Assembly: GCA_963719085.1 (NCBI GenBank)
Contig: CAVRAL010000004.1
Coordinates: forward strand, 1,056,001-1,120,000
Direction of reading: 5' to 3'
Length of the DNA stretch: 64,000 nt
Origin: a candidate division FCPU426 bacterium
GTDB taxonomy: Bacteria > Oederibacteriota > Muellerivitia > Muellerivitales > Muellerivitaceae
The position numbers and the translations under genes were made by a program. Under the pieces are notes generated by a model. That model was not told the DNA's origin. It saw nothing but the letters and a program-made list of their open reading frames with translations, and searched no databases. The stretch's first letter is position 1. Every line of letters starts with the position of its first letter. Positions 22,351 through 52,199 of the stretch are shown piece after piece.

Positions 22351-22365
22351 AAGGGATGAAAACAA
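21879..22365 (+). repeat. Near-identical ~480-bp direct repeat (3' end of the YfhO-like gene), copy 1
   Basis: Starts TCCCTATGTGTACGCGCCCGAG; recurs at +2273 and +4552. Confidence 0.97.
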
Positions 22366-24623: not shown

Positions 24624-24638
24624 AAGGGATGAAAACAA
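24152..24638 (+). repeat. Near-identical direct repeat, copy 2
   Basis: About four substitutions versus copy 1 seen by eye; includes the intergenic AAGGG and the next gene's ATGAAAACAA. Confidence 0.97.
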
Positions 24639-35730: not shown

Positions 35731-37215
35731 TTAGAGAAAAAAAGTTCCCGAAAGCTCAAACCCGTTTTGGCTGGTGTCCGGGCTGGAAGCGTCGTTTAAA
35801 GGGAATACCTCGCCCAAAAGAAGTTTGGCGTCTAATAAAAGATTGTCTTCCCTTAAGCCCACTCCGCCGACTACGCTGGACGTCAGTGTTTGAAGGCGGG
35901 CGCCAAAACGTTCCTCGTCAATCTCGTTTAATATCCCGATGCGGATCGCCCACTCGGGGGCGATCCATTTTTCCCCGCCAAGGGCGATTTGGTAGCTGTC
36001 CAAATTTGGATCCGCTTGGCCGTCGGCGCCGGAATCCTGCGGATTGAAAGACCCGCCCAAATTATTTTGGGACCGAAACTGCAGGCCCACCAGGTAGTCT
36101 TCGGGCGCTTCTAAGCCAACTCCAACGGCGGTTTGAATCTGTTGATATTGGTCCGTTTCTAAAGGGGCCCCGCCGGGTTGAAATAATTTTTCGGTTAAAA
36201 ACCCGCAGGTCGCGGCCGCGCCTATTTTTAAATCCACGTCGCTTAAATGAATCCTTATTTTCGCCGCTCCCGTGAAGGTCGCGCCTTCGTCGTTCGATAA
36301 AAGATAATCCGGCTGGGTCTGGAAATCCGGGGACGAGGAAGGGACGGTTTGCGCGAAGCGAGTTTGCAGGCCGCTGGAGGAGGCGCTGAAACGAAGTTGA
36401 AGCGATTGGGGAATTTCGTAATAAACCTCGGCGGTTCCACTCGCTTGGCTGAGATGGTAAAGCCGTTGAAGCGGAAAAGGGCTTTGGCTGGGATAAAAAA
36501 CCGAAAGCGTTTGGGTTTGAGTATCGGGAGCCAGGTCCGTCTCAAAAAAACCGCCTAACTGCCAATGGGGGGAGAGCGGGGAATCGCCTTCAACCCCATG
36601 CGCCACGATCCCGGTTTTGAGCGTCCATTGGTTTTCGTTTGTGGTGCCGGATAAAACATTCACATCATTGTTAAAAGCCCCGGGCGCGAAAGTTTGATCG
36701 ATTTGCTGATCGCTGGTTTCAACTCCGAAGGCCAAGGCTCCCCAGTTCACCGCGGTTCGAAAAAGGCCAAAAGCGTCCGCCTGGTTGTATTGGTCGAGCT
36801 GCGAAAAAGCGGGTTGGTCGCGGGGATTGTCCAGGCCGCCCGTCGCTTGAACCGCCCATTGGGGGCTTAAAAAACCAAGCCAGCCTTGGTAACCGATATC
36901 CTTATTTTTCGTCCGGGGAAAGGTGCTCAGGATTTGTTCTTGACGGCCGCCATTCAAGGCGGGCGGCGGAAAAGGCGAATCAGCCCACTGGCCCGAAAGG
37001 TCCAGGCGGTTTTGGGGGGGTAAAAGGACCAAAGCGGCGGGGTTTCCATCCAAAAACAGGTTTAAATCGGCGGTTTCATCCGTGACGATAGTGGTCAAGC
37101 CCCCCATGGCGTCCACCCGGGTTTCGGAAGCGCCGCCGCGGGAGGGCGCGGCGAAGCCACAGGCCATCGAGAGGAAGACACTGATAACCCATAGGACCGC
37201 GCGGGGGTGTTTCAT
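35731..37215 (-). CDS. Probable outer-membrane beta-barrel protein (FadL/PorV-like N-terminal motif)
   Basis: Signal peptide; RVDAMGG...NPAAL plug-like motif; amphipathic strands; ends FELSGTFFL. Confidence 0.6.
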   Translation of the reverse strand: MKHPRAVLWVISVFLSMACGFAAPSRGGASETRVDAMGGLTTIVTDETADLNLFLDGNPAALVLLPPQNRLDLSGQWADSPFPPPALNGGRQEQILSTFPRTKNKDIGYQGWLGFLSPQWAVQATGGLDNPRDQPAFSQLDQYNQADAFGLFRTAVNWGALAFGVETSDQQIDQTFAPGAFNNDVNVLSGTTNENQWTLKTGIVAHGVEGDSPLSPHWQLGGFFETDLAPDTQTQTLSVFYPSQSPFPLQRLYHLSQASGTAEVYYEIPQSLQLRFSASSSGLQTRFAQTVPSSSPDFQTQPDYLLSNDEGATFTGAAKIRIHLSDVDLKIGAAATCGFLTEKLFQPGGAPLETDQYQQIQTAVGVGLEAPEDYLVGLQFRSQNNLGGSFNPQDSGADGQADPNLDSYQIALGGEKWIAPEWAIRIGILNEIDEERFGARLQTLTSSVVGGVGLREDNLLLDAKLLLGEVFPLNDASSPDTSQNGFELSGTFFL

Positions 37216-37468
37216 GGCAGGCTCCCAAAAATCCGGATGTCGGGCGGAAGTATAGCAGACCGGATGCTGGTTGCTCCCGCCCAAAAATCGGTTAAAATAT
37301 TTGAAAAGGCCTTAAGCGGTTGAACCCCGGATGATGGGGCCTTAATTCCAGTCGCGATTATTTTGGACTGCCTCCCAAAATCCGCGTGTATCAATATTGA
37401 GAATCCAAAGCCGATAACCCAGAACCCGTCCCCGGCGGGTTTTCTGTTGAGCGCATTTGAAGGAACCC

Positions 37469-40400
37469 ATGAAGACCAACACGCTGAAGCCCGTTCAAAC
37501 CGGGGACATCATTGAAGTGGAAATCCAATCGCTCGCCTTCGGCGGGGATTCGGTGAGCCGTTATGAAGGCTTCGCTCTTTTCGTGCGCGGCGGTTTGCCC
37601 GGCGAGCGGGTGAAGATCAAAATCACCCAGGTGAAGGACCATTACGCCACGGGTGAGATCGTGGAGATCCAGCGTTTTTCCCCCGACCGCGTGGCCCCGC
37701 CTTGTCCCATTTTCGAGGAGTGCGGCGGCTGTCAGTGGCAGCACCTTAATTATCCCAAACAGCTCCAGACCAAGCGCCAATTCGTGGTCGACGCTTTACA
37801 GCGCATCGCCAAGATGGACTCCGTCTTGGTCCAACCCTGCCTGCCTTCGGAATCTTCCTACGCCTACCGAAACAAGGCCATGCCGGTTTTATCCATGCGG
37901 GACGGCCATTTCATCTCGGGCATTTACGAACCCCGCTCCCACAAACTGGTGCCTTACCAGAATTGCCCCATCCAAGGCGACGCGATCAATGACCTCATCC
38001 AAAAGGCGCTCAAAAAAATAGACCTGGCGGGTTTAACGCCTTACCAGGAAAAAAAGCATTATGGGTTTTTGAGGCATTTGGCCGTGCGCCAGGGCGTGGG
38101 GACGGGCGAGCTTTTGCTGGCCTTCGTGACCCGCACCCAAATGCCGGAAGAGCGCCTGCATAAAACGACTTTGCTTCCGGAACCCTTGGCTGAAATTTTG
38201 CCCCGGGTAGCCAAAGAGCTGATGGAGGAGATCCCGGGTTTGGTGGGGGTTTTGCAAAACATCAATCCTTCCCGCACCAACATTGTTTTTGGATCCTCGA
38301 CGGAAGTTTTGGCGGGCCGGGATTATTACTTTGAGAAATTCGACGGGCTGACCCTGAAGGTTTCCCTGAAATCCTTCCTGCAGGTCAACACGCCGCAGGC
38401 TCAGGTGCTGCATACCATCGTGCGGGAGGCGCTCGGGGAGCCCGAGGGCCGTAAAAAATGGGGAACGGTTCTTGATCTTTATTCCGGCATCGGCACCCTG
38501 GCCATGGCCGTGGCGGATCGGGCCGATTATGTGGTCGGAGCCGAGGAAGTCGCCCCGGCGGTCGAGGACGCCCGTCAAAACGCCGAATTGAACCGCAAAA
38601 CAAACATCGATTATCTGGAAGGGGATGTGGCGGACCTTCTTTTGAAATTGAAGGCCCAAGGTCTCTCGCAAATTGACGCGGCCATCATGGACCCCCCGCG
38701 AAAAGGGGTTTTGCCTGAAGTGTTATCCCGCTTGACGGCGTTGAAGCCTGAACGCCTGGTTTATGTTTCCTGCGACCCCACGACTTTGGCCCGGGACTTG
38801 GCGCTTTTAATGAAGCACGGCTACAGTGTGGATTGGGCCCAGCCCCTGGATATGTTTCCCCAAACCTATCACGTGGAAACCGTCGTCCGGCTGACCCGGG
38901 AAAAACCTTTGTCGCCCGAGGAAGCCGCGCCGGCCAAACCGGAGCTGGAGCCTTTCCGCCTTCCCAAGATGGCCCGGGTCAGCTTGAACATATCGGCTTT
39001 GGGTCAAAAGATTCAGTTTGGGGTCGCCGCGGCGCAAACCGCCCTTTCGGGCCTGTTCCAAAAGAAGGATTCCATTCACTGGCCTTTAGCGGATCCGGCG
39101 AAGCTTGTGGTTGAAAAAGAGGCGCTTGAGACGGTTTCGGTGGAAGCGGCGAACGAAGAGCTGACGTTGGAATCCAGCCTGGAAGTTTCCGAGAAAGACG
39201 CCTTGGCCGAGCCGCTGCCCTCCCAGGCGCGGCCGGAGCGCCAGTTCCCGAATCAATGGATCGCCCTGCTTCGGCAAGGGACCCGGAATTTCCCCTGGAG
39301 TCCCCGGACGATCGGCATCGCTTTGCTTCTTTTATTCATCCTCGCCGGAGGCAGCTACTTCGCGGTGGCGGATTTGGCGCCCCTAATCGCCCGGTCCCCC
39401 TTCCAAGTGGCGACTACGCCGCAATTTATCCCCGATACCATCGCCATCATGCCCACGCGGAATTTTTTGAGGTATGAAATGGTGCCTTTTGAGGTGCGCA
39501 TCCATCCGGAGGACATGCCGCATTTTTCGGCCATGCACGCCGTGGTGGAGGTTTTTCATGACGGACAACCCGTGGCTATGGTGGATGGAAAAACGAAACT
39601 GTACCTAAAAAAAGACCCGGCGAACGCCCGTTTCATCGGCAATTGGCCCATTCCTTATAATCCCGAACCCGGCACCTACACCGCCCAAATCGCCTTGACC
39701 GGACCCCAGTGGCCCGACCCCAAAGGTTTCGAGTCCGCCTTTACCATTTCGCCTTTGAAGCCCTCGGGACTTTATCCGGGATACTCCGCGCTCACGATGG
39801 AAGGCGGCAAGCATCTATTCAACGGGGTGGTTCCGCCCGTGGATGGAAAGGGCCCGGATAGCCTGGCCAACGCGATGGGGTGGGTTAAATTCATGGGCGC
39901 TAACACCTATTGTTTTCTCGCCGGGCAGACCTCGGTTTGGGATAAGTTGAACCTGAAAGATTTTCCCTTTAACCGCGGAGACGTGGAGCTGGCCCATCGT
40001 TACGGCGCGGCGGCCCATGACGCGGGATTGAAGTTCGCGGCTTACATGACCACCTTCCGGGTGGTGGGCGATGGATGGCAGCAGGCCCAAGGCCATTATC
40101 AGTTCACCATGGGCTATGACGCGGATTCGGACCAAGTAGTCCCCACCGATTTTATTTCGCTTGAGGATCCCAACCGGCGGCAGGACATCGTGGGCTTATT
40201 GAAGGAGCTGGATAAAGACCCGAACATCGACATGATTGGCCTGGATTATGTCCGCACCGGAACGGGCGGCTATGAAATGGTCGATGAGTTCGTGCGCGAT
40301 TTGAACGTGCCGGGCCCGGCGGATTATTGGTCCATGTCCAAGGATGAGCGCATCCATTGGCTGGCCCGAACGGTGGCGCTCAAAGAAAACAAGGATGTGG

Positions 40401-41302
40401 TGGCGCTTTTTGAGTGGTGGCGCGCGCACAAGGTGGCGATGACCTTGAAGGCGCTGCTCGATCAAGCCAAGCTCAGCAAACCCGTTTTCACTTTCACCTT
40501 GGGCTGGGACATGGGACATGAGCATGGGCAAGATCCGGCCATGTTTGAGGACGCCGGAGTTAATTTTAACCACATCATGCTTTATCAAAGCGACCGAAAA
40601 ACGATTGAGCAAATGAACCTGCAATGGCCGGCTTATATTTCCCGCAGCAACGGCATGTACGCGCTGGGCGAGATGGTGGATGAGAATTGGGTTCAGGACT
40701 CCATCAACCCTCCGGGCCCGGAAGAGCTTTATAACCGGGAAGCGGAAACCTTCCAGAGCTGGCAGCCCGTCAACGCCGGGATCGGCATGTTTTGGCACGA
40801 CCTCTACCGTTTGATTTACGGCCAGAAGGGTCCCTATAGCGCCATGGAATGGGCGGTGGCCGGCGGCAAGGCGTTCTCCTTATTACAGCGAACCGAAGGC
40901 GTTTTGCCTTTGGAAATAGAGCTGACGATCCCGAAAGAAGCCCCGGCGGGGGTTCCGATTCCCATCAGCGTGATGATTCACAACTCATCCATTAACCCGA
41001 TGACCGGCATCGTGCTGCACCAGGTGGATACCTCCAAAGAATATTTCACCGACTTGGCCACCGTGGGCCCCTTTGACATTCCGGCGGGGGACATGGTCCG
41101 GGTCAAGGACCTTTATGTAACCCTTCCCAAAGAACCCCACCCGGAAAGGGACGACCGTTACATGGCGGCGGTGCTCGCGGAAAAACCCGGACAATCCTTA
41201 AGGGCCTTTGATTTCGCCTATGTGAAGGCTTTGCCGCCGGGGACGGCGATCAAGGCTACTGACATGCCAAAACCCGACGATGTCAAATCGGCGAACGAAT
41301 AA
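37469..41302 (+). CDS. rlmD: 23S rRNA m5U methyltransferase RlmD fused to a TM helix and a glycoside-hydrolase-like ectodomain
   Basis: TRAM domain, CPIFEECGGCQWQH Fe-S motif, SFLQVN, LDLYSGIG, DPPRKG, YVSCDP, DMFPQTYHVE. Then a TM at ~39308-39370 and IDMIGLDYVR in the C-terminal part. Confidence 0.88.
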   Translation: MKTNTLKPVQTGDIIEVEIQSLAFGGDSVSRYEGFALFVRGGLPGERVKIKITQVKDHYATGEIVEIQRFSPDRVAPPCPIFEECGGCQWQHLNYPKQLQTKRQFVVDALQRIAKMDSVLVQPCLPSESSYAYRNKAMPVLSMRDGHFISGIYEPRSHKLVPYQNCPIQGDAINDLIQKALKKIDLAGLTPYQEKKHYGFLRHLAVRQGVGTGELLLAFVTRTQMPEERLHKTTLLPEPLAEILPRVAKELMEEIPGLVGVLQNINPSRTNIVFGSSTEVLAGRDYYFEKFDGLTLKVSLKSFLQVNTPQAQVLHTIVREALGEPEGRKKWGTVLDLYSGIGTLAMAVADRADYVVGAEEVAPAVEDARQNAELNRKTNIDYLEGDVADLLLKLKAQGLSQIDAAIMDPPRKGVLPEVLSRLTALKPERLVYVSCDPTTLARDLALLMKHGYSVDWAQPLDMFPQTYHVETVVRLTREKPLSPEEAAPAKPELEPFRLPKMARVSLNISALGQKIQFGVAAAQTALSGLFQKKDSIHWPLADPAKLVVEKEALETVSVEAANEELTLESSLEVSEKDALAEPLPSQARPERQFPNQWIALLRQGTRNFPWSPRTIGIALLLLFILAGGSYFAVADLAPLIARSPFQVATTPQFIPDTIAIMPTRNFLRYEMVPFEVRIHPEDMPHFSAMHAVVEVFHDGQPVAMVDGKTKLYLKKDPANARFIGNWPIPYNPEPGTYTAQIALTGPQWPDPKGFESAFTISPLKPSGLYPGYSALTMEGGKHLFNGVVPPVDGKGPDSLANAMGWVKFMGANTYCFLAGQTSVWDKLNLKDFPFNRGDVELAHRYGAAAHDAGLKFAAYMTTFRVVGDGWQQAQGHYQFTMGYDADSDQVVPTDFISLEDPNRRQDIVGLLKELDKDPNIDMIGLDYVRTGTGGYEMVDEFVRDLNVPGPADYWSMSKDERIHWLARTVALKENKDVVALFEWWRAHKVAMTLKALLDQAKLSKPVFTFTLGWDMGHEHGQDPAMFEDAGVNFNHIMLYQSDRKTIEQMNLQWPAYISRSNGMYALGEMVDENWVQDSINPPGPEELYNREAETFQSWQPVNAGIGMFWHDLYRLIYGQKGPYSAMEWAVAGGKAFSLLQRTEGVLPLEIELTIPKEAPAGVPIPISVMIHNSSINPMTGIVLHQVDTSKEYFTDLATVGPFDIPAGDMVRVKDLYVTLPKEPHPERDDRYMAAVLAEKPGQSLRAFDFAYVKALPPGTAIKATDMPKPDDVKSANE

Positions 41303-41465: not shown

Positions 41466-42233
41466 ATGGCCTCGTCCAAGTGGTTCTTGATCCTCGTGGG
41501 GACCCTGGGGATTTCTTTTTTAACCGGTTGCGGGGCGATTTTCATCAACGAAGGTTCCAAAGAATATTCCCGAACCGATAACCTTCAAAACCCCGACGAG
41601 AACAAACCCAAGGTCGTTGTGCCGGCCGAGCAGTGCCGGATCAGCGATTTCCAAGATTCCAGCACCGATGTTAACTCCAAGCTTTTTGGCGCCAGCGGCG
41701 GCACTTGGATCGCTTTTTCTTTCGGCGGCAACACGGTGAACAGCCCCTTTTTGGTGCCGGGCGGGGCGAATGGCGACAAGATGGCGGCGCATATCTATGG
41801 AACCTTAACGGACAAGGGAGACGCCTCTTATCCCTCTTTCACGCTTTCGTGCCAATTCACCCAAAGCGGTTTATATGACGCGTCCAACTTTACCGGGATC
41901 AAGTTCTACTATAAATGCCCGTCGAAGGACCAATCGTTGAAACGCCGGTTGGCCTTGGGGACGTCCCCCACCTTGCCGGCCTCCGCGGGCGGCAATTGCG
42001 CGGCGAATTGTTTTGACCATTTTGGAACCACGCTTCATTCTTCCGAGGATTGGGCGGTTTACAACTTGAAGTTCACCGATTTGACCCGGGAAGGCTGGGG
42101 CGCGCCGGTCACGCCGCCGGATTTGATTGATCATTTGAAAGAATTCATCAATTTATCATGGAACAACAGCGCCAATAACACGGCGGGAAGTTATCCGATT
42201 GACTTCTGGGTGGATGACGTCGAGTTTTTCTAA
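41466..42233 (+). CDS. Lipoprotein with a CIA30/CBM11-like domain (paralog 1)
   Basis: Lipobox FLTG-C; YDASNFTGIKFY, GGNCAANCFDHFG, C-terminal DFWVDDVEFF. Confidence 0.75.
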   Translation: MASSKWFLILVGTLGISFLTGCGAIFINEGSKEYSRTDNLQNPDENKPKVVVPAEQCRISDFQDSSTDVNSKLFGASGGTWIAFSFGGNTVNSPFLVPGGANGDKMAAHIYGTLTDKGDASYPSFTLSCQFTQSGLYDASNFTGIKFYYKCPSKDQSLKRRLALGTSPTLPASAGGNCAANCFDHFGTTLHSSEDWAVYNLKFTDLTREGWGAPVTPPDLIDHLKEFINLSWNNSANNTAGSYPIDFWVDDVEFF

Positions 42234-42285
42234 AAAGTTTCGAACCGTTTAAACGACGGGACTAATTGTCAAACGAGAGGTTTTT

Positions 42286-44826
42286 TTGACTTTTCGCTTT
42301 CAAAACCTATTGACGGCCTTTTTCGTCCTTGTTTTTGGGGGGGCGATCGTTTCCGGGGCCTTCGCCGATCCTTTCGCCGATGTCACGGCGGATCAAAGTC
42401 TTTACCAACGGGTAAAAAAGTTGGGGGACGATGGTTTGCTGGATGCTCAAGACCGGGCGGTGTTGGATCAAGGCAAGGTCGTGAGCCGGCTGGAACTGGC
42501 TTTCTATACGGAAAAGGCCAAGGCCCGCATTGAAGCGCCTGAGCTGGCCCAGCCGGCGATCGCCACACCCACGCCGCAAGCCTTGCCGTCTCCCGTGATT
42601 TTGGCGCCCACGGCCGTGCCGACCGCCGCTCCGCCTTCCATTTATCCGTCGGCGGACAAGCAAGAAATTGAGGAACTGCTGAAAGAATTCCGCACCGAAT
42701 CCGTGCTTCTCAAGAGCCGTTTGAGCCTGGATGACACGCGCATCAAGGAACAAGAGGATGAATTGGACAAGCTCAAGACGGTCCAAGACGAAGTGGACGA
42801 GATTTGGAAGAAAGCCAATAAGTCCTCGGGAATCCCCAACCTTTACACCAACATCAATATGCGGGTGGAAAATATCAGCCTGTCGGGCCCGCTGACCCAG
42901 GAAAACGCCACCCGAATCCTTCAAGAAATTTACGTCGGAACCTACTCCGACCTGGGGGGCAAGGGCACCCTTTCGGCCGGCTTGGGAGCGCTGATTCCGG
43001 TGGATGGCGCCAACGCCTCTTACCAGCTTTTGGGCGTGGGAACGCAGCCGGTCTCGCTTTATATCGGGAATCCCAGCGTCACTTTCTTTAACTACGGGGA
43101 CCTGGGCCGGTGGGACACCACCTTCGCCGTGGAAACCTACCAGCCCGACACCAGCTTCGGGGCTTTCAGCCGCGGCTACGCCAATTACGCCATCAAGCGG
43201 TTTGAGGATCCTTTCGACATTAAAAATTTCAATGACGATAAAGACGCCAAAAACTGGGACGATTACATGAATCAGGTCAGCTATATCCCGGCCTATTCCA
43301 TGTCCGCGGGGAACGTGCAATCGGCGAACGACCGCGTGTTTGACGGCATGTACCTGGCGGGGAAGCAGGTTCCGTGGCTGGGTCCGGACGGGCGCATGTG
43401 GGTATTGGTGGGCCGCATGGGGACCAGCCCTTCCCAAACCCAACGCTGGGAAGAGGGCGCCAAAATCATGGAGCCTTGGGCGAATAATTTAGTCACGACC
43501 TCCATTTCCACCGAATGGGTGAACGATAACTTCGGCGTGAACCAAGCGCCCCAGCTGGATATGAAGGATTACGAGTTGGAGTTGAAACTCAACACGCCCG
43601 TGGCCGTTGATGTGGACGCCGGATTCTCCCATTTTTCCACTGGAGTGGACATCCTCAACCCGGCGGTCACGGCCGCCAATCCGGAAGCTTTGGAAGCCGG
43701 CGCGGGGCAGGCTTCGGTGGCTTATTATCCCTTCACGCTTTACGGCTTCGCGATCAGCGATGAATACGCCGACTTCCAAAGTAAGGTCACCATGAGCGGC
43801 CTTAACTTCGCCCGCTACGGCCTTTATTTCAGCCCCTCGGACTACAACGACGCCTATGGTTCCATCGGGGAGGTGGACAATCTTCAAAGCGACCGTTACG
43901 GCTGGCGCCTCAATGTGGGATGGGACGGCCGCAAACAGGATTGGATGAAGGAATGGCCCTCCTTTTTGGATACTTTCGTCGTCAATTTCGACGTGTCGCA
44001 GAAGACCGAATTCACCTCCGAGGTCAACAACGAAGGCGTGACCTCGGGTTACAACGAGATCGAGCCGACCCAAATGTTGAGCTTTTATTATCCCGACGAC
44101 GAAGGGCTTTGGGGCTTGAACCTCTGGGGCAATTATTCCCCCAACGTGAATCCGGTCCGTCAGGACTACATCAATAATATCGAGGACATCCGAAACGACG
44201 GGGACGTGTTGAATGATGATGTGCGCTATCAGTTCCGGATGACCAATGAGAGACTGCCTCTCATCATCCCGATTTATTCAGGCCCCGGAACCATCTTGAC
44301 CGACGGCAATGGCCATAATGTTTACTACAACATCACCAATATCAAAACCTACAACTACATCACCTTGACGACCAAACTGAAGTTCGACAAATGGTTCAAC
44401 CTGCCTCGGCCCCTGGATGGTTCTTTTTACATGACCGACAACGTGGTTTCGGGTTTGGCGTCCCAGGCCAATAACGCGCCGCTTCCTGCCGGCGCGGACC
44501 CCGCCTCGAATACCGAACTTCCCATGTCGGGCGCGATCCCGAACTTGTTTGAGCAGCGGGTCTTCAGCGGCGCCTTGATGGTCAGCCTAATGGACGACGT
44601 GGACTTGATGGCCGATATGGGATTGGAAACCTGGCGCAGCGCCTATACCTACCCCCAGGTGGACTACCAAACCCATGAGTACGGGCTGGGTGTCGCTTAT
44701 GACATCCCTTGGTGCGGGGGGAAAATGGAATTGCGTTATAAGCATATCGATTTCAATGATAAGTACGTCCCGGATAATGATTATTCGGGTGATCAGTTCT
44801 TTACCAAAATTAAGTTCATGTTTTGA
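42286..44826 (+). CDS. SLH-like + coiled-coil + beta-barrel outer-membrane protein (OmpM/SomA-like), paralog A
   Basis: Signal peptide; PFADV...LYQRVKKL..DG...SRLELA; Pro-rich linker; EELLKEFRTE coil; C-terminal beta-signal FTKIKFMF. Confidence 0.72.
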   Translation: MTFRFQNLLTAFFVLVFGGAIVSGAFADPFADVTADQSLYQRVKKLGDDGLLDAQDRAVLDQGKVVSRLELAFYTEKAKARIEAPELAQPAIATPTPQALPSPVILAPTAVPTAAPPSIYPSADKQEIEELLKEFRTESVLLKSRLSLDDTRIKEQEDELDKLKTVQDEVDEIWKKANKSSGIPNLYTNINMRVENISLSGPLTQENATRILQEIYVGTYSDLGGKGTLSAGLGALIPVDGANASYQLLGVGTQPVSLYIGNPSVTFFNYGDLGRWDTTFAVETYQPDTSFGAFSRGYANYAIKRFEDPFDIKNFNDDKDAKNWDDYMNQVSYIPAYSMSAGNVQSANDRVFDGMYLAGKQVPWLGPDGRMWVLVGRMGTSPSQTQRWEEGAKIMEPWANNLVTTSISTEWVNDNFGVNQAPQLDMKDYELELKLNTPVAVDVDAGFSHFSTGVDILNPAVTAANPEALEAGAGQASVAYYPFTLYGFAISDEYADFQSKVTMSGLNFARYGLYFSPSDYNDAYGSIGEVDNLQSDRYGWRLNVGWDGRKQDWMKEWPSFLDTFVVNFDVSQKTEFTSEVNNEGVTSGYNEIEPTQMLSFYYPDDEGLWGLNLWGNYSPNVNPVRQDYINNIEDIRNDGDVLNDDVRYQFRMTNERLPLIIPIYSGPGTILTDGNGHNVYYNITNIKTYNYITLTTKLKFDKWFNLPRPLDGSFYMTDNVVSGLASQANNAPLPAGADPASNTELPMSGAIPNLFEQRVFSGALMVSLMDDVDLMADMGLETWRSAYTYPQVDYQTHEYGLGVAYDIPWCGGKMELRYKHIDFNDKYVPDNDYSGDQFFTKIKFMF

Positions 44827-44834
44827 GGATTGGG

Positions 44835-47138
44835 ATGAAATTAACGGCTTCTCAAAATTTTAAAGGCTTTGGAACGGTTCTAAGCTTCGCGCTGGGCGTC
44901 CTCAGCTTCGTCCTCGGCTGCGCCTCGCCGGCGTGGGCGGACCATGGCAAGCTCGCGTCCGCGGACCGGGACGCTTGGATCAATTGGGATGTTTCCGAAC
45001 TGGTCGCGGCGGGCCTCGTTCCCGCCCCGGAAAAACCCGTGGAGCAAATGACGAATTTAGAAGTGGCGGAGCTCACCGCCAGCGCCTCCCGGCTTTATAT
45101 GGCCCAGGCGGACGTGAATATGCTTCCCCCGCCGCTTCCGACGGATTCCCCCGCCGCTTCCGACGGTCCGGGCCTTCCCGGAGCGTTGTCGGCCGAAGGG
45201 CCGGGGGACGCCAATAAAAGCTTGGGTGACTTGGTGCAGGAGTTCCGAGGGGAACTGAGCGCCATGGGCCTGGAAGTCGACCAACTGGAAGACCGGATCA
45301 CGGATGAAAAAACCCGCAATGAGGTATTCGCCACCCTCCAAGAGGATTATTTAAAAAGAACCGGCACCGAGGTCGGAGGGTCTTCCCGCGGCTACATGTA
45401 TAACTACCGGGGGTTCGGGGCCAACAGCCTTTATGGGCCCATGGGCTATAACGCCGCCATGTATTTGGAAGTGGATTTGAAAAGCGTGCCCATTCCCTCC
45501 ATCTTGTTCGACGCGCGCTTAAGGCTTTGGCGTTCCATTGGGATGTATTACCAGGATCCCGTCCAACCGCCTTACCAACTGCGCTGGATTTCTTTGACCA
45601 GTTACAACGACTTCGGTAATTTCACCGCGGGTGATTTTTTTAAGAGCTACACGCCCTTAACCCTTTGGAGCTATGACGTGCCGCTTTATACCATGATCGA
45701 GCCGACCTCTTTCCACCGCGACCGGGTGGACACCGAGGAGTTGGTTTATATGGATCAGAGTCCCGATTGGCATTTCCGGGGTTTTGAGGCGGAGACGGGC
45801 AAGGAATGGCCGAAAGATCCCGTGTTGAGTGGATTTAAATATCAGGTCATGTCGGGTCTCATGCAGGAACCCGGATCAACCAGCGGCGGATCGGTTTTTG
45901 GAAGCTATTACCTGGGCAGCCAAGGGTCACTGGGTCTTTTCAACCACATCCTCGATTTTACCAGCACGGGGTTGGTTTTATTTAATGATCCCGAAAGCGC
46001 CAATGTGCCTTATCAGCCCAATCAACCCTCCACTTTTCCCAAGCAATACGTGATCGGCAGCGTGACCTCCAAGACCACGATTCCTTTGGGGGACAAGGCG
46101 GACTTGAGCGCTTCCATGGAAAACGCCTTCAGCCAATATGACGATGACTTGAACAATCCCCAGCGGGTGTTCAAGGACTGGGCTTTATTGGCCAATGGTT
46201 CGCTCGATGTAGAGGGCGTCCATTTTACGGCGAAGTATATGAACAACGGCCCTTATTTTTATTCGCCCGGCGCCCAGACGAACAAATACACGCCCGCCTC
46301 GGGCTCGCCGGGATATTTAAGCTCCAATTTGGGAAGCGAATTCAGCGGTTTGGACAGCGGCCTTCCGGGTTACTTGAACCAGTTCGTCTTCCAGAACGTG
46401 AACCGGCCCTTCTTCGCGCCTTACGACCGTTTATCCGAAAACTTTTTGCCCTATGGCGATGCCTCCCCGAACCGGGAAGGCCTGGTGCTGGGTTTCTCGG
46501 CTGAGATCGGGGAGAAGGGCTGGCTCAAGCCCCAAGCTTCCTATGTGGTGACCGGGCAAGAAATTCAACCCAACCTGGTTTTGAACGGGGCGGGGACCGC
46601 GGCCATCCCGGTGGACAGCCAAACCAACACCACCACGCCCCGGGTTTTCGGGGGATACGAAGGCGCCCTATCGATGGATCTGGCCAAGGCTTTTGATCTG
46701 AACAATCAAACTTACGATGTCCAAGTGGACTATAAACACCAAACCGATGACTTGGGGCTTGGCGGGGTCAGTCCCTTTACCGTGAACACGCTTATTTTGG
46801 CGGGCGACTTTAATATTCCGGTCCACTTCCTGTCGACGGTGGTTTGGTCGCTGGCCTTTGAGCGCGCCCAAGCCAGCGGCAGTGAGTACGTTTTCGGGGG
46901 GAATCCCGAGACCTGGGCGAGTTATTCGTTCTATTTAGATGATTCGGAGCTCGGCCAGTATATTTATGAGCCCCTGAATCTGACCCGTCAAACCCTGGCT
47001 TTTGGCGCGATGCTGCCCCTGGGGGACAAGATCGATTTCAGGGCGGACCTATTTTTAACCCGTTACAACTGGGCGGATATCCCGACCTATGACCGGCAGG
47101 ATCAAATTTGGAGATTCACTTATGAAGCGCATTTCTAA
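44835..47138 (+). CDS. SLH-like + coiled-coil + beta-barrel outer-membrane protein, paralog B
   Basis: W..VSELVAAGLV...MTNLEVA; LVQEFRGELSAMGLEVDQLEDRI; ends WRFTYEAHF. Confidence 0.72.
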   Translation: MKLTASQNFKGFGTVLSFALGVLSFVLGCASPAWADHGKLASADRDAWINWDVSELVAAGLVPAPEKPVEQMTNLEVAELTASASRLYMAQADVNMLPPPLPTDSPAASDGPGLPGALSAEGPGDANKSLGDLVQEFRGELSAMGLEVDQLEDRITDEKTRNEVFATLQEDYLKRTGTEVGGSSRGYMYNYRGFGANSLYGPMGYNAAMYLEVDLKSVPIPSILFDARLRLWRSIGMYYQDPVQPPYQLRWISLTSYNDFGNFTAGDFFKSYTPLTLWSYDVPLYTMIEPTSFHRDRVDTEELVYMDQSPDWHFRGFEAETGKEWPKDPVLSGFKYQVMSGLMQEPGSTSGGSVFGSYYLGSQGSLGLFNHILDFTSTGLVLFNDPESANVPYQPNQPSTFPKQYVIGSVTSKTTIPLGDKADLSASMENAFSQYDDDLNNPQRVFKDWALLANGSLDVEGVHFTAKYMNNGPYFYSPGAQTNKYTPASGSPGYLSSNLGSEFSGLDSGLPGYLNQFVFQNVNRPFFAPYDRLSENFLPYGDASPNREGLVLGFSAEIGEKGWLKPQASYVVTGQEIQPNLVLNGAGTAAIPVDSQTNTTTPRVFGGYEGALSMDLAKAFDLNNQTYDVQVDYKHQTDDLGLGGVSPFTVNTLILAGDFNIPVHFLSTVVWSLAFERAQASGSEYVFGGNPETWASYSFYLDDSELGQYIYEPLNLTRQTLAFGAMLPLGDKIDFRADLFLTRYNWADIPTYDRQDQIWRFTYEAHF

Positions 47139-49515
47139 AAATTTATCGCTGCCCCTAACCGCCGCGGCCCTGACCTTAGGTCTGAGTCCGGCCCTTTTTG
47201 CCTCCACGGACCCGGTCCCCCAACAGAACTCGGCTGTCTTGTTCTCGACCGTTCCACTGGGCGATTCGACCTATGGGCGCTTGAGCCAGTTAGAGAAGGC
47301 CGGTCTTTTGCCCGCGGGCGCCGCCCAGCCGCCCCTGACCCGTTATGAAGTGGCCCAAGATATTTTGACGGCTCAAAACCGCTACCACCAAATCGTGGTG
47401 GCCGACGCCGATACGGACATGCTGCCTTCGGTGGAAGATTTAGGAAACGCGGGTGTGACCGCGGCTCCCGGGTCGGACACGGCCCTAACCGCTTCGGTTA
47501 CCGCCCCGGCCGCGCCTTCGGAACCGGTGACGGAGTCCGACGCGGATCTGGCCAAGGCCGCTCAAACCTTAACCAGCCTGCAAGACGCCTATCAATATGA
47601 ATTAAAAGCCGTTCAGGGCCAAAAAGACGCCACTTTGAAATCCTCCTCGGATGTGGAAGCCGGACAATACGATTTGTGGAAAAGATTGAAGGGGATTTCC
47701 GAATATCCCACCGTGGCCTGGCATGGGTTGGGAAGGGCGTTCCAAATTGCCCAGCAATATTACGGCGATACGGGCGCCATCGGGTTGAGCCACAACTCCA
47801 CCCAAACCGAATTGGGTTATATCGATTTTGAGCCTGAAGGCGTGGTCGATAAAGAAATCCGCTGGGATATGATCTTGCGTTATAAAACGCTGATGGAGTC
47901 GAACCAATCCGCTTCCATCGATACGCTCACCGTCCGCCGGGTCACCATGGATTATAACGCGCCTTGGGTTTCGGTCACCTTGGGTGATTTCGACGAGGCT
48001 TACACGCCTTTAACCCTTTGGAACCGGGATAATTTAGACCTGCGCTATAAACCCGAAATGATCGCCCGGGAAGACGATACTTTGAAATACGAAAGCTTTT
48101 TAAATAACGAGCCCAATTGGCCTTTCCGCGGCGCCCGGGCCAGCACGGAACTTTTGTGGCCCAACTCGGATCTGCTGGACCGCTTTAAAATTTCAGTGAT
48201 GGCCGACATGATCGCCAACGGTTTCAACGACACCACGGGACAGGCTTTTTATTACGGACCGGATAATTTCACCGACTTTATTTTCGGCGCCGACAGCGAG
48301 CTCAAGTCCAAGCGCTGGTATTTGGGCGGGAACGCCTCGATCCAATTGGCGATGGACGCCTACGCGGTTGTTTTGGCCGAGCCTTTGGGCACCAACCAAC
48401 CCAATTCCATTTACGTTCAATTCAATCCCGATACTTGGGCCCATCATTATCAGATCATCAGCTTGAAGCCTTCAGTGGACTTCGGGCTGGGGGATGACGC
48501 GTCCTTTGGGGGCGTTTGGGAAGGCGCTTCAGCGGTTTATCAGGACGATGAGCGGGACAATAATAAAATTGTCAGCGATTACGCCATCCTGGCGGGACCT
48601 TACTTACGGTTGGGCCATTCCAAGCTGACCTTCAACTATCTTTATGTGGGACCCTATTACTATTCGCCCCTGGCCCAGACCCGGCAGGATGATCTGGTCC
48701 CGGGTTCCAACGCGCAAGGCGCCGCCACCCCCGAGCTTTTCGACGCTCCCCTGCGCAGCCAGTTTTTCCTGAACGGCATCCCCCGCGCCGGCGGAATCTT
48801 CGGTTATTACGACCGCACCCAGGACAATACCTTCCCCTATGGGTTGGCGACTCCCAACCGGCAGGGCGCCGGGCTTGATTTGGACGTGAAAACACTTGAT
48901 AAAGACGCCCTGCAAATCTTGGGGTCGATCTACTTTGTTCAGGAAATCAGTGATAACCTTGTGGAAGAGAGCCAGGGCGGGGTTTATGTTCCGGTTCCGG
49001 TGGACGGGACCGCGTCGGCCCCGACCCCCCAGCGCAGTTTCACTTACGTGAATGTGGGACCCTCGTTGAACCTGGGGCCCGCTTTGGGCTTGGACCAGGA
49101 TTTAGTCGTGGGAACCAACGCCCGGTTCGAGCAGACCAACAGCTCGGTCGGCACGCTGACCAGCGCCTGGCTTTTAGGCGGAGTGCAGGTGGGGTTGTTC
49201 CCTTGGTGGGAAATGGCGGCTTCCTATAGCGACCAGGAAATAAAGGGCCATGACACCGGCATTGGGAACACCACTTTGGCGAGGTATTCGTATATTTTTG
49301 ATAATTCGGATTTTGGTTCTTACAACGTTTTTACGATCGACGGCAGCAACCAAAGTTTCCGCTTGTCGAGCGTGTTCAAGATCAACCGCAACTCGAGCCT
49401 TTATCTGGATTACGACCTGACCGGCGGGGACGCGGTCCCCTACGTGGGGTCCACGGCGCCGGGAACGAAGCTGAACAACCAGTACCTGGAGATGACTTAT
49501 GAAATCCAATTCTAA
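47122..49515 (+). CDS. SLH-like + coiled-coil + beta-barrel outer-membrane protein, paralog C
   Basis: FSTVP...YGRLSQLEKAGLL...LTRYEVA; LQDAYQYELKAV; ends LEMTYEIQF. Confidence 0.72.
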   Translation: MKRISKNLSLPLTAAALTLGLSPALFASTDPVPQQNSAVLFSTVPLGDSTYGRLSQLEKAGLLPAGAAQPPLTRYEVAQDILTAQNRYHQIVVADADTDMLPSVEDLGNAGVTAAPGSDTALTASVTAPAAPSEPVTESDADLAKAAQTLTSLQDAYQYELKAVQGQKDATLKSSSDVEAGQYDLWKRLKGISEYPTVAWHGLGRAFQIAQQYYGDTGAIGLSHNSTQTELGYIDFEPEGVVDKEIRWDMILRYKTLMESNQSASIDTLTVRRVTMDYNAPWVSVTLGDFDEAYTPLTLWNRDNLDLRYKPEMIAREDDTLKYESFLNNEPNWPFRGARASTELLWPNSDLLDRFKISVMADMIANGFNDTTGQAFYYGPDNFTDFIFGADSELKSKRWYLGGNASIQLAMDAYAVVLAEPLGTNQPNSIYVQFNPDTWAHHYQIISLKPSVDFGLGDDASFGGVWEGASAVYQDDERDNNKIVSDYAILAGPYLRLGHSKLTFNYLYVGPYYYSPLAQTRQDDLVPGSNAQGAATPELFDAPLRSQFFLNGIPRAGGIFGYYDRTQDNTFPYGLATPNRQGAGLDLDVKTLDKDALQILGSIYFVQEISDNLVEESQGGVYVPVPVDGTASAPTPQRSFTYVNVGPSLNLGPALGLDQDLVVGTNARFEQTNSSVGTLTSAWLLGGVQVGLFPWWEMAASYSDQEIKGHDTGIGNTTLARYSYIFDNSDFGSYNVFTIDGSNQSFRLSSVFKINRNSSLYLDYDLTGGDAVPYVGSTAPGTKLNNQYLEMTYEIQF

Positions 49516-50320
49516 ACAACGGTGGTTCGGCCGCGTGAGCGGCGTCGCGGGCTGCGTCGCGCTCTTGGGCGGGTTGGTTCTTCTGTTGAATTCGGGCTGT
49601 CAATCCAGCGTCCCGGGTTTCGGGAATTATGCCGCCCCCAACTCGGTGCCCAACAGCAACCGGGTGGACCAGTTCGCCACCGGAAGTATCGCCATTAATC
49701 CCAACCTTTTCGAGGACAACAACCCGCCCAGTTACGTCTTGAAAACGCCGGGTTCGGTGACCTTCGTGAATAATTTCCCGACTTACGGATCCGGCAGCGG
49801 CCAATTGGTGCCGGGCGCCGGCGCGGTCAGCCCCTACGCTTACCAAATGTCGGGCGCGGTGACGGATTTGCTCGACAACACTTTTCCGGCCTTGGATTTG
49901 GAAATTCCGATGGAAAATTACACTTATTACGACGCGAATCATTTTAGCGGCGTCAAGTTTTACCTGAAAGTGGCCGATGATGATACGGCGGCCCACCGGG
50001 TGTTCGCCATCCCCGTGGCGCAAACCGTTCCCACGGGAACCAACAACGGCACCTGCCCGGCGGGGCCCAAACGCTGCTACGATCATTTCGCGGCGGACTA
50101 CAGCGGCGGCACCGGGGGCCAATGGCTTCTTTCCAGCTACAATTTCAGCGATCTCCAACAGCTTCAATCCGGCTACGCGCCGGTGGTCCCCACCTTGACC
50201 GGGGATAACGGGGCCAACTTGAAACAGACGCTTTGGCTGCAATGGGAAGAAGGAAACAACAACAAAAAGCCGGGTCTTGCCACGATCGATGTTTATGTGG
50301 ACGATATCGAGTTTTTTTAA
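49499..50320 (+). CDS. Lipoprotein with a CIA30/CBM11-like domain (paralog 2)
   Basis: LNSG-C lipobox; YDANHFSGVKFY, GTCPAGPKRCYDHFA, DVYVDDIEFF. Confidence 0.75.
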   Translation: MKSNSKQRWFGRVSGVAGCVALLGGLVLLLNSGCQSSVPGFGNYAAPNSVPNSNRVDQFATGSIAINPNLFEDNNPPSYVLKTPGSVTFVNNFPTYGSGSGQLVPGAGAVSPYAYQMSGAVTDLLDNTFPALDLEIPMENYTYYDANHFSGVKFYLKVADDDTAAHRVFAIPVAQTVPTGTNNGTCPAGPKRCYDHFAADYSGGTGGQWLLSSYNFSDLQQLQSGYAPVVPTLTGDNGANLKQTLWLQWEEGNNNKKPGLATIDVYVDDIEFF

Positions 50321-50378
50321 AACAGTGGTAATTTTAAAGCAAGGTGGCTTGGGCAGAGCCCAAGCGGGGAAAGTGGCT

Positions 50379-51146
50379 ATGAACAACAAATCAGTTTTAA
50401 TTTTGGGCTTGGCGTTATTGGGCTTGCTCCAGGGATGTACGGAGAAGCTTCCCTTATCCAATCCGAATCTTATCTTGGCCCAGCCTTTGCCCGTCACGGT
50501 GGTCTCCGACTTTGGCAACGCCTCCTTGAAGACAAACCCCACGCTTTTTGACAGTGAAAAGGGTTTCTTTTTGGATGGATCCTACGCTTATAAAACGGAC
50601 AGCGGCTTGCAGCTGACGACGCCGCTTGTCAGCGCTTCCTTTCCCGATCCCAGCAACAGCCCCTACGCCTTGCATCTTTTCGGGACCTACATCGACTATG
50701 GCAACGGCGGTTATCCGGCCTTCGAACTGGAATGCTTTCCCCGCGCCGACAGCCAATTTTACGACCTCACCTCTTTCGCCGGCCTGACCGGCATTGAGTT
50801 CGACTGGTGCACCGGACCCACGGACAACTCAAATCAATACTTTTTTTGCCTGATCACCGCCCGCATCGCTCCCCAAAGCATCGGCGGGGATGGAACCTGC
50901 GGCACCCCCGGCGCCGTGCCTTGCTACGATTACCTCGGCAATTCGCTTTTTGGGACGGGCGGGAACTGGTTCCAGCTTCAGCTGCCTTTCAGCAATATGA
51001 ACACCCAATATTCTTCGGGCAGTCCGACCAACGTCACGGCCGCGGATATGACCCATGTTCTTCAATTAATGTGGACCAACCGGTCCAACAATGTTTCGGG
51101 CAATTACACCTGCGATATGTGGTTGGATGACATCCAGTTCTATTGA
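50379..51146 (+). CDS. Lipoprotein with a CIA30/CBM11-like domain (paralog 3)
   Basis: LLQG-C; YDLTSF..LTGIEF, GTCGTPGAVPCYDYLG, DMWLDDIQFY. Confidence 0.75.
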   Translation: MNNKSVLILGLALLGLLQGCTEKLPLSNPNLILAQPLPVTVVSDFGNASLKTNPTLFDSEKGFFLDGSYAYKTDSGLQLTTPLVSASFPDPSNSPYALHLFGTYIDYGNGGYPAFELECFPRADSQFYDLTSFAGLTGIEFDWCTGPTDNSNQYFFCLITARIAPQSIGGDGTCGTPGAVPCYDYLGNSLFGTGGNWFQLQLPFSNMNTQYSSGSPTNVTAADMTHVLQLMWTNRSNNVSGNYTCDMWLDDIQFY

Positions 51147-51169
51147 TCGCCGGTTGAACCCATTTTTTT

Positions 51170-51200
51170 AAAAGGCGCGGCTAAAAGCCGGGCCTTTTTT
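51170..51200 (+). terminator. Rho-independent terminator
   Basis: AAAAGGCGCGGCT-aaa-AGCCGGGCCTTTTTT. Confidence 0.8.
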
Positions 51201-51279
51201 ATTTAAACTTGGTTTTAACGGGGAACAAAACCGTATTTTTAGCCCCGGAGGTTGTGGAAGCCCAATTTTTGTCCCCGGG

Positions 51280-51288
51280 TGGTATAAT
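51280..51288 (+). promoter_or_regulatory. Extended -10 promoter element
   Basis: TGGTATAAT upstream of the gene at 51363 (RBS GAGGAGG). Confidence 0.55.
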
Positions 51289-51362
51289 TCAATAACGCCG
51301 ATCTAAATATAAAATATAAACAACCCAATGGCCGCCCCGCGTTTGAGTATGAGGAGGACCCT

Positions 51363-52148
51363 ATGAACAGCCGGACAAAATTGGTTTTATTATTCGCCGC
51401 GCTTTTCTGCCAAGGATGCCAAAACAATTCGCCCGCCGCGCAGTCGTTTTTGGCGCCCGCCCTTTCGAACAAAGTCGTGTCGAACTTTGGAGAGGCTTCG
51501 CTCAAGGTTAATCCAACCTTAACGGATTCGGCGGCGGGAACTTTTATCGATGGTAGTTATGGTTTCAGCGGCGATAGCGGCCTCGGGTTCGCCCCGCCCT
51601 TGGCCGATCCAAGCGGCAACCCTTACGCTTTGCATCTCTTCGGCGATTATATCGATTACGGCAACAACGGTTACCCGGCTTTTGAGATAGAGTGCCTGCC
51701 CCGGGCGAACGCTTCCTATCCCAACAACCTGTTTGATCTCGGGAGCCTCCAAGGTATCTCCTTCTGGTGGAACCGGGGGACGGATGACAACGCCAATCAG
51801 GTATTCTTTTGCCTGGTCACGGCGCGGATCGCCCCCCCCAGCATCGGGGGCGACTGCGGCGACCCCGGCAACCCCAGCACGGTGCCTTGTTATGACTACC
51901 TGGGGAATTCGCTTTTGGTATACCCCAGCGGCCAATGGTCTCATGTCACCCTTGATTTCGACGGTATGGGACTCCAGTATGGAGCGGGTGGTCCCGGCAC
52001 TGTCCAGACATACGATAGACAGCAGGTGCTTCAGTTCATGTGGACCAGCCGTTCGAATAATAATTCGAGCGCCAATAACCCGGCTGGGGGCCCGCCGGCC
52101 CAAAAATACACCGCTGACATCTGGCTCGACGACGTCGAATTATATTGA
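51363..52148 (+). CDS. Lipoprotein with a CIA30/CBM11-like domain (paralog 4, closest to paralog 3)
   Basis: FCQG-C; PYALHLFGDYIDYGNNGYPAFE, GDCGDPGNPSTVPCYDYLG, DIWLDDVELY. Confidence 0.75.
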   Translation: MNSRTKLVLLFAALFCQGCQNNSPAAQSFLAPALSNKVVSNFGEASLKVNPTLTDSAAGTFIDGSYGFSGDSGLGFAPPLADPSGNPYALHLFGDYIDYGNNGYPAFEIECLPRANASYPNNLFDLGSLQGISFWWNRGTDDNANQVFFCLVTARIAPPSIGGDCGDPGNPSTVPCYDYLGNSLLVYPSGQWSHVTLDFDGMGLQYGAGGPGTVQTYDRQQVLQFMWTSRSNNNSSANNPAGGPPAQKYTADIWLDDVELY

Positions 52149-52172: not shown

Positions 52173-52199
52173 GGCGCGGTTAAAAACCGCGCCTTTTTT
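52173..52199 (+). terminator. Rho-independent terminator
   Basis: GGCGCGGTT-aaa-AACCGCGCC followed by TTTTTT. Confidence 0.88.

Follow-up and report, generated by a model that had tools for sequence, protein, structure and literature searches.

We analyzed a stretch of 64,000 nucleotides (nt) from a candidate division FCPU426 genome (contig CAVRAL010000004.1, positions 1,056,001–1,120,000; hereafter the window), in which positions 41466–52148 hold seven genes on the plus strand: a lipoprotein gene (L1), three genes for large exported barrel proteins (A, B, and C), and three more lipoprotein genes (L2, L3, and L4). This cluster probably encodes an oligosaccharide import complex that depends neither on TonB nor on a SusC/SusD pair, carries lipoproteins resembling carbohydrate-binding modules (CBMs), and is of the kind encoded by chu_1276–chu_1280 in Cytophaga hutchinsonii. 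The original prediction, made from the letters of the sequence, had presented it as an undescribed system. Because the barrels belong to the CHU_1276 and CHU_1277 families, it is instead a variant of a described "atypical PUL" (polysaccharide utilization locus; PMC12016534). All seven open reading frames (ORFs) named in that prediction were real and lay on the plus strand.

The barrel genes are consecutive: A (42286–44826, 846 aa), B (44835–47138, 767 aa), and C (47122–49515, 797 aa). The end of B overlaps the start of C by 17 nt, and the end of C overlaps the start of L2 by the same length. Protein A has a signal peptide, an SLH-like domain, a Pro-rich linker, a coil, and a CHU_1276-type barrel. 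C has an SLH-like domain, a linker, a coil, and a CHU_1277-type barrel, and B has the same layout and barrel type as C.

A profile of B gave 429 matches at E ≤0.001 among 1.84 billion representative sequences. Among the matches listed (150 of 429), 58 aligned proteins of approximately 570 aa lacked both the SLH-like domain and the coil, and profile–profile comparison of this group with C gave 99.96% over 509 columns. A 17-sequence subset of the group retrieved 212 metagenome relatives, the best 80 of which gave 77 loci. The upstream gene belonged to the A-type barrel family in all 60 loci showing it, and in 67 of 69 the downstream gene fell in a single lipoprotein-like cluster. In locus L187, one protein had 9 of 10 published CHU_1279 residue positions at zero offset, compared with at most 4 among 104 other ORFs, and it falls into one 90% cluster with CHU_1279 of C. 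hutchinsonii (ABG58551.1). In locus L191, the second barrel is named as CHU_1277 family, the cluster of the first barrel has a member named as CHU_1276 family, and a glycoside hydrolase (GH) gene of family GH9 lies 3', matching the place of CHU_1280 in the Cytophaga cluster (PMC6247017).

Both B and C matched the CHU_1277-position family at 99.9% with hhalign, and the B profile matched a named CHU_1277-family protein (P0425) at E 6e-22. For A, hhalign against the CHU_1276-position family gave 95.5% over 407 columns, and orthologs from the phylum bridged the two with 99.8% on both sides. In these comparisons the Cytophaga families were represented by position- and name-matched relatives in place of CHU_1276 and CHU_1277 of C. 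hutchinsonii. By sequence comparison, the window barrels are distant relatives of the C. hutchinsonii cellulose utilization barrels; one relative of B and C came from Chitinivibrionales. According to one study, growth on cellulose requires chu_1276 and chu_1279, and deletion of chu_1277 has a marked effect (PMC12016534). The literature that we covered, which largely leaves out subscription journals, holds no account of the present operon or its link to chu_1276–chu_1280, no OmpM heterotrimer, and no relatives of CHU_1276/CHU_1277 outside Cytophaga and Sporocytophaga.

The three barrels had been proposed to be paralogs. B and C align over their full length (BLAST E 1e-39; profile–profile 100%), whereas A lies outside the reach of BLAST (E 0.05 or worse), and its match to the B and C profiles is confined to the SLH-like domain and coil (N-terminal 170 residues). 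The sequence motifs quoted for these proteins are all present, except that the GDF...YTPLTLW block holds three variable residues rather than two. The A barrel could be tied to B and C indirectly, by the equal number of strands that the A and C models show and by a profile match of 98.2% between the Bacteroidota relatives of A and those of B and C. Because these two Bacteroidota families match each other at this level, all three window barrels appear to be ancient paralogs. None of the seven proteins reached a Pfam or NCBIfam cut-off, and single-sequence searches of the PDB with the window proteins returned nothing.

Structures were predicted with AlphaFold2 for A (112 sequences, predicted local distance difference test [pLDDT] 80.6) and C (108 sequences, pLDDT 83.3), and B was placed by its full-length homology to C. 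In both models, two or three short helices are followed by a disordered linker, a long helix, and then a barrel of approximately 22 long strands, as counted from DSSP elements; long loops follow strands 5, 13, and 15. The SLH-like domain, coil, and barrel span about aa 27–82, 122–180, and 185–845 in A, and 49–95, 140–194, and 197–796 in C. The large barrel that had been expected behind the coil is therefore present in both predicted structures. Because the coil leads straight into strand 1, both barrels are predicted to be plug-less. SusC BT1763 headed both VIA lists (Z 14.1, root-mean-square deviation [rmsd] 5.2, 401 residues aligned; Z 12.9, rmsd 4.4, 401 aligned), with an identity of 6–7%; in these models the match reflects barrel size and not family. 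Foldseek and VIA ranked many barrel families nearly equally, and family assignment by fold was dropped; SlpA did not appear among the rows listed, an absence that carries no weight. Membership in the SusC/TonB-dependent transporters was rejected as well, since the models have no plug and a PF00593 search gave seven other genes of the genome and not A, B, or C. Some A orthologs (P0131 and P0136) have TPR matches and are 90–100 residues longer.

At the N-terminus, the SLH-like domain called from sequence was recovered by profile searches, in which A matched OmpM1 structure 8BYS (E 1.6e-5) and C matched 8BZ2 (E 1.3e-3). The A model supports this fold: its residues 27–144 superposed on 8BZ2, the SLH domain of OmpM1 (Z 12.5, rmsd 2.1, 82/83 residues, 29% identity). 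OmpM had been put forward as the closest comparison, which holds for the N-terminal 180 residues but not for the barrels, which group with the CHU_1276 and CHU_1277 families. The ligand residues of OmpM1 are W34, G58, the TRYE motif, and Y36. A has TRLE and Tyr40, and at the OmpM1 ligand-motif positions B carries TNLE and Trp48 and C carries TR[FY]E and Tyr51; each protein retains its own motif. Coil length is nearly constant (49 residues in 105 of 106 A sequences, 40 in all 38 B sequences, and 39 in 100 of 103 C sequences), unlike the linker beside the coil, whose length varies widely. The genome encodes LolA and has four OmpA-domain matches. Within the phylum, a B-like barrel at L132:8727-10490 has a much shorter N-terminus and apparently lacks both SLH-like domain and coil, which suggests that members of the group can lose or acquire the stalk.

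The lipoproteins L1 (41466–42233, 255 aa, Cys22), L2 (49499–50320, 273 aa, Cys34), L3 (50379–51146, 255 aa), and L4 (51363–52148, 261 aa) are paralogs, as had been proposed (BLAST E 1e-11 to 1e-75). The Cys pair and the D.[WY][VL]DD[VI][EQ][FL][FY] end noted previously are present, although the spacing of the Cys pair varies among the four (3, 6, 7, and 10 residues). L1 is the conserved member, with a mean column identity of 51% compared with 28% for L2, and it appears to contain one CBM11/CIA30-like domain; L2, a candidate surface glycan-binding protein, and L3 are variable. L1 was found directly upstream of A in 32 of 33 loci with a visible upstream gene, and an L-type or c0-cluster protein directly followed C in all 39 loci with a visible downstream gene. 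The c0 cluster comprises divergent lipoprotein-like genes upstream of many extra copies of the system (seen in L041, L042, L043, L046, L048, L049, L059, and L061), whose products have long Thr/Pro linkers, the same DD[IV]-type end, and no Pfam match. L4, with 51% identity to L3, is a local duplicate of it and was never the best label among the 40 related loci.

The lipoproteins likely adopt a CBM-like (galactose-binding-like) fold. Those of their Atlas neighbors that bear a family all belong to one clan (CBM30, CBM11, CIA30, and SGBP-B xyloglucan-binding proteins), and for L1 the CBM30, CBM11, CIA30, and SGBP-B clusters lie at 0.92–0.93. With a 54-sequence lipoprotein profile, this domain was also detected in fusions with GH8 enzymes (E 1e-7), and in other families the lipoproteins that occupy this position match CBM11 or CIA30. 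Profiles of L1 and L2 matched no solved structure, and no SusD-type Pfam or NCBIfam match was observed for the four lipoproteins or for 31 L1 orthologs.

Gene order, which the original prediction had named as a point to check, proved to be conserved: A, B, and C were consecutive in 38 of 40 related loci (37 counted by script, plus L069, whose truncated A had been dropped by an overlap filter), and the contigs of the other two end early. In L135, L148, L069, and L043, barrel or neighboring genes are broken into at least two ORFs, probably by frameshift or assembly error. C and A were detected in 24 of 24 genomes of the same family; the B profile matched 60 of 99 phylum genomes, among which were all 30 from the family, and the top Atlas cluster for C is mostly from Goldiibacteriota. 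Half of the loci (20 of 40) represent what we call the housekeeping copy. In other families, A-like and B-like genes were adjacent in 14 of 16 loci, the remaining two stopping at a contig edge, and no third barrel was seen in these 16 loci. In a FastTree phylogeny (38 sequences, 504 columns; unrooted, with deep nodes lacking support), B and C formed one clade with support of 1.0, apart from the single B-like genes of other families, indicating that only this order has the duplication that gave B and C.

A link to glycan use had been predicted and is visible in the neighborhoods of relatives. We found a glycoside hydrolase gene (GH31, GH29, GH42, GH2, GH5, GH44, or GH9) beside 12 of 18 non-housekeeping copies, these 18 being the loci, among 20, with a visible flanking gene; one representative per cluster was scanned. 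At E 1e-8 the count was 10 of 18, compared with 1 of 19 control windows of 10 kb that were set at round coordinates beforehand (region L128 and five ORFs of <156 aa were omitted). A glycoside hydrolase also flanked 30 of 41 Bacteroidota-like loci of at least 9 kb. In many two-gene loci of other families, CBM9, CBM11, or CIA30 proteins come next and GH9, GH44, GH62, or GH5 genes are near, and sugar-binding proteins, SSF/MFS transporters, and sugar kinases flank many loci. Consistent with the earlier claim, none of the 43 scanned ORFs of the window encoded a TonB-dependent receptor, although seven were found elsewhere in the genome, and Pfam and NCBIfam scans revealed no SusC/SusD pair in the window locus. 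Several Bacteroidota-like barrel pairs (L192, L202–L204, L206, L208, L209, L213–L215, L217, and L218) stand beside genes for GH18 and/or glucosamine-phosphate deaminase-like proteins, which suggests that these pairs serve chitin use; others adjoin GH3, GH16, and SSF transporter genes.

The system resembles chu_1276–chu_1280 in the order of its two barrel types, CHU_1276-like and then CHU_1277-like, which are anciently related and are followed by CBM-like lipoproteins, in lacking a SusC/SusD pair, and in the hydrolases that adjoin many copies. It differs in that each window barrel carries an SLH-like domain and a coil, both missing from the Bacteroidota proteins, in the doubling of the CHU_1277-like gene (B and C), and in the conserved L1 that precedes A. 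Moreover, the window lipoproteins are single-domain proteins without clear homology to CHU_1278/CHU_1279, the window copy has no adjacent hydrolase, and the host belongs to FCPU426 rather than Bacteroidota. The succession of signal peptide, one SLH motif, coil, and C-terminal barrel is that of OmpM1 of Veillonella parvula (8BYS and 8BZ2; PMC10628300) and also that of SlpA of Deinococcus radiodurans. However, the models of A and C have approximately 22 strands, compared with 16 in OmpM1 and 30 in SlpA. OmpM1 is a homotrimer, whereas three unlike subunits occur here in a fixed operon; in addition, the barrels show no sequence match, the SLH motifs are degenerate and subunit-specific, and lipoprotein partners are present. 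SusC/SusD utilisomes (BT1763-1762, PDB 5T3R) have barrels of similar size, surface lipoproteins, and glycan loci, but the models of A and C show no plug domain, and the window system has no SusD homolog. The lipoprotein domain, whose relatives include GH8 fusions, compares with the galactose-binding-like modules CBM11 (Clostridium thermocellum, PDB 2LRO/1V0A), CIA30, and CBM30; the window lipoproteins, however, miss every cut-off and carry the conserved Cys pair.

A possible mechanism is as follows. The outer-membrane complex would capture oligosaccharides and import them independently of SusC and SusD, with no plug-gated, TonB-driven step. A, B, and C would assemble, most simply as a 1:1:1 trimer whose coils and SLH motifs, three of each, build a single stalk in the periplasm, and lineages with two barrel genes would make A-B-B. 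By binding the cell wall, the stalk would also tether the outer membrane. Long loops may narrow each lumen, through which oligosaccharides released by surface or secreted hydrolases would diffuse, to be drawn inward by periplasmic hydrolysis and binding proteins. L1, a candidate lid or core subunit, would act as a structural partner, with glycan binding supplied by the variable L2, L3, and L4. The window copy is the housekeeping one, inherited vertically and probably serving beta-glucan oligomers or glucose, with the extra copies of relatives occupying substrate-specific loci.

Co-assembly of A, B, and C is suggested by the fixed gene order, the 17-nt overlaps between genes, the near-constant length of the coils, and the subunit-specific SLH motifs, and on this basis we lean slightly toward an A-B-C heterotrimer. 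A more specific version, in which an obligate, L1-capped ABC heterotrimer of plug-less 22-strand barrels on one three-chain SLH stalk derives from an A-B-B core of TonB-independent glycan import present in Goldbacteria/FCPU426, Bacteroidota, and Fibrobacterota, is slightly less likely than not. If it were true, CHU_1276 and CHU_1277 would assemble 1:2 in Cytophaga, and an OmpM-style tether would be active in a lineage from the part of the tree in which OmpM was reported to be missing.

Several observations weigh against the import complex or its proposed architecture. Compared pairwise or by its own profile with a named CHU_1276-family protein, A reached E 0.01–0.03 only, so this link needs profile–profile comparison or bridging sequences; homology of the lipoproteins to CHU_1278/CHU_1279 (hhalign 60% or less) was not established. 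The lipoprotein profile matched C. thermocellum CBM11 in the PDB no better than at E 0.93, and the PF03425 (CBM11) cut-off was reached neither by the lipoproteins nor by any of 31 L1 orthologs. The window proteins also fall short of the Pfam SLH cut-off, the genome yielded no Pfam SLH protein and no CsaB-type pyruvyltransferase, and the loop bearing G58 in OmpM1 is not evident in A, B, or C and looks degenerate. With regard to glycan use, no Pfam glycoside hydrolase was detected among the scanned window ORFs, and the genome has four GH5 matches above cut-off and no GH9. The Fisher P-value for the hydrolase excess (about 0.001) is an overstatement, because the counted loci are kin and fall into approximately six related types. 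Finally, a crude g–e charge score of the coils over 34 paired loci was 7.9 for AAA, 3.9 for ABC, 3.0 for CCC, 2.0 for ACB, and -3.1 for BBB.

With AAA scoring best, the same function with another stoichiometry has to be considered, namely A homotrimers, with B and C (or A and B) in separate dimers or other oligomers. The span from coil to barrel is 9–10 residues longer in A than in B and C, and the presence of two barrel genes in most lineages is also compatible with a heterodimer. We nevertheless regard this arrangement as rather unlikely: the charge score of BBB is negative, none of the loci with intact flanks held A, B, or C alone, and SLH ligand grooves lie between three repeats (PMC10628300). 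An OmpM-like outer-membrane tether and general porin, with structural lipoproteins and a glycan context arising from later recruitment of duplicates, would fit the OmpM1-like SLH domain and coil, the occurrence in 30 of 30 genomes of the family, the housekeeping share of 20 in 40 loci, and a genome in which neither a Pfam SLH protein nor Pal was found above cut-off. This is improbable in our judgment, since the Bacteroidota relatives retain the barrel pair and lipoproteins without SLH and coil, which argues that the barrels and not the tether are the conserved core, and the two-gene cassettes of other families also adjoin GH9, GH44, GH62, CBM9, and CBM11 genes.

It is also quite doubtful that the complex is mainly a display or export platform, placing lipoproteins and hydrolases on the surface, with sugar passage secondary. 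The title of Zhou 2016 reportedly has CHU_1276 involved in glucose uptake, and the sugar-binding proteins, transporters, and sugar kinases beside many loci likewise speak for passage of sugars. So does a growth defect at low glucose described in one study (PMC12016534); however, the same study indicates that the presence of CHU_1279 counts more than its binding, and another report ties CHU_1276/CHU_1277 to cell-associated beta-glucosidase activity (PMC5553014). Both observations would suit a display platform, as would the FlgD-like or T9SS-like (type IX secretion system) tails of proteins next to some two-gene loci and the large lumen of the predicted 22-strand plug-less barrels.

This locus places the Cytophaga barrel pair in another, mostly uncultured phylum, with a relative also in Chitinivibrionales, and suggests that a little-known sugar import system is common to several bacterial phyla. 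The stalk predicts an architecture, a trimer of unlike barrels, that can be checked in culturable C. hutchinsonii. If this phylum belongs to Gracilicutes, as we assume, the finding also bears on the split in outer-membrane tethering. In one preprint, OmpM is called "completely absent from the Gracilicutes" (bioRxiv 2021.05.31.446380). PMC12016534 treats SusCD-free passage of cellulose products across the outer membrane of Cytophaga-type bacteria as an open question and gives the cluster formed by chu_1276–chu_1280 from three related species. The FCPU426/Goldbacteria phylum, a sibling of Elusimicrobia, is mostly uncultured and has been described as cellulose-degrading (PMC7031533).

Within the window, a terminator-like GC hairpin with a T run (51174–51200, plus strand; read by eye and unscored) probably ends an L1-A-B-C-L2-L3 transcript. 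L4 lies behind it and is probably transcribed on its own; a second, similar hairpin, also recognized by eye, is located 3' of L4 (about 52173–52199, plus strand). No further copy of the cassette was found in this genome, which is 99% complete. The cluster sits between an RlmD fusion gene and lepA, and the genes 3' of the housekeeping copy are, as we read them from sequence, presumably lepA-lepB-hemW-hrcA-grpE. In the fusion gene (37457–41302), an RlmD-type RNA methyltransferase is joined to approximately 800 extra residues that include a membrane segment and have no Pfam match; in 17 related loci this gene is found upstream of the housekeeping copy.

On the minus strand, 35731–37284 encodes an exported protein of 517 aa with a beta-signal-like C-terminus and no Pfam match, probably another outer-membrane barrel, and proteins with a similar N-terminus were found at the same position in L107 and L147. 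Three tandem membrane proteins of approximately 760–790 aa are encoded at 20062–26902, each with a weak YfhO match near its C-terminus. Elsewhere in this genome (C4:1028176-1038884, C4:42081-44123, C1:750636-752435, and C1:779527-781884), we observed secreted proteins sharing a C-terminal tail like a T9SS sorting signal, as well as OmpA-domain proteins whose N-termini we take to be PorV-like. Relatives match FlgD_ig and Por_Secre_tail, which suggests a T9SS-like export route in this phylum.

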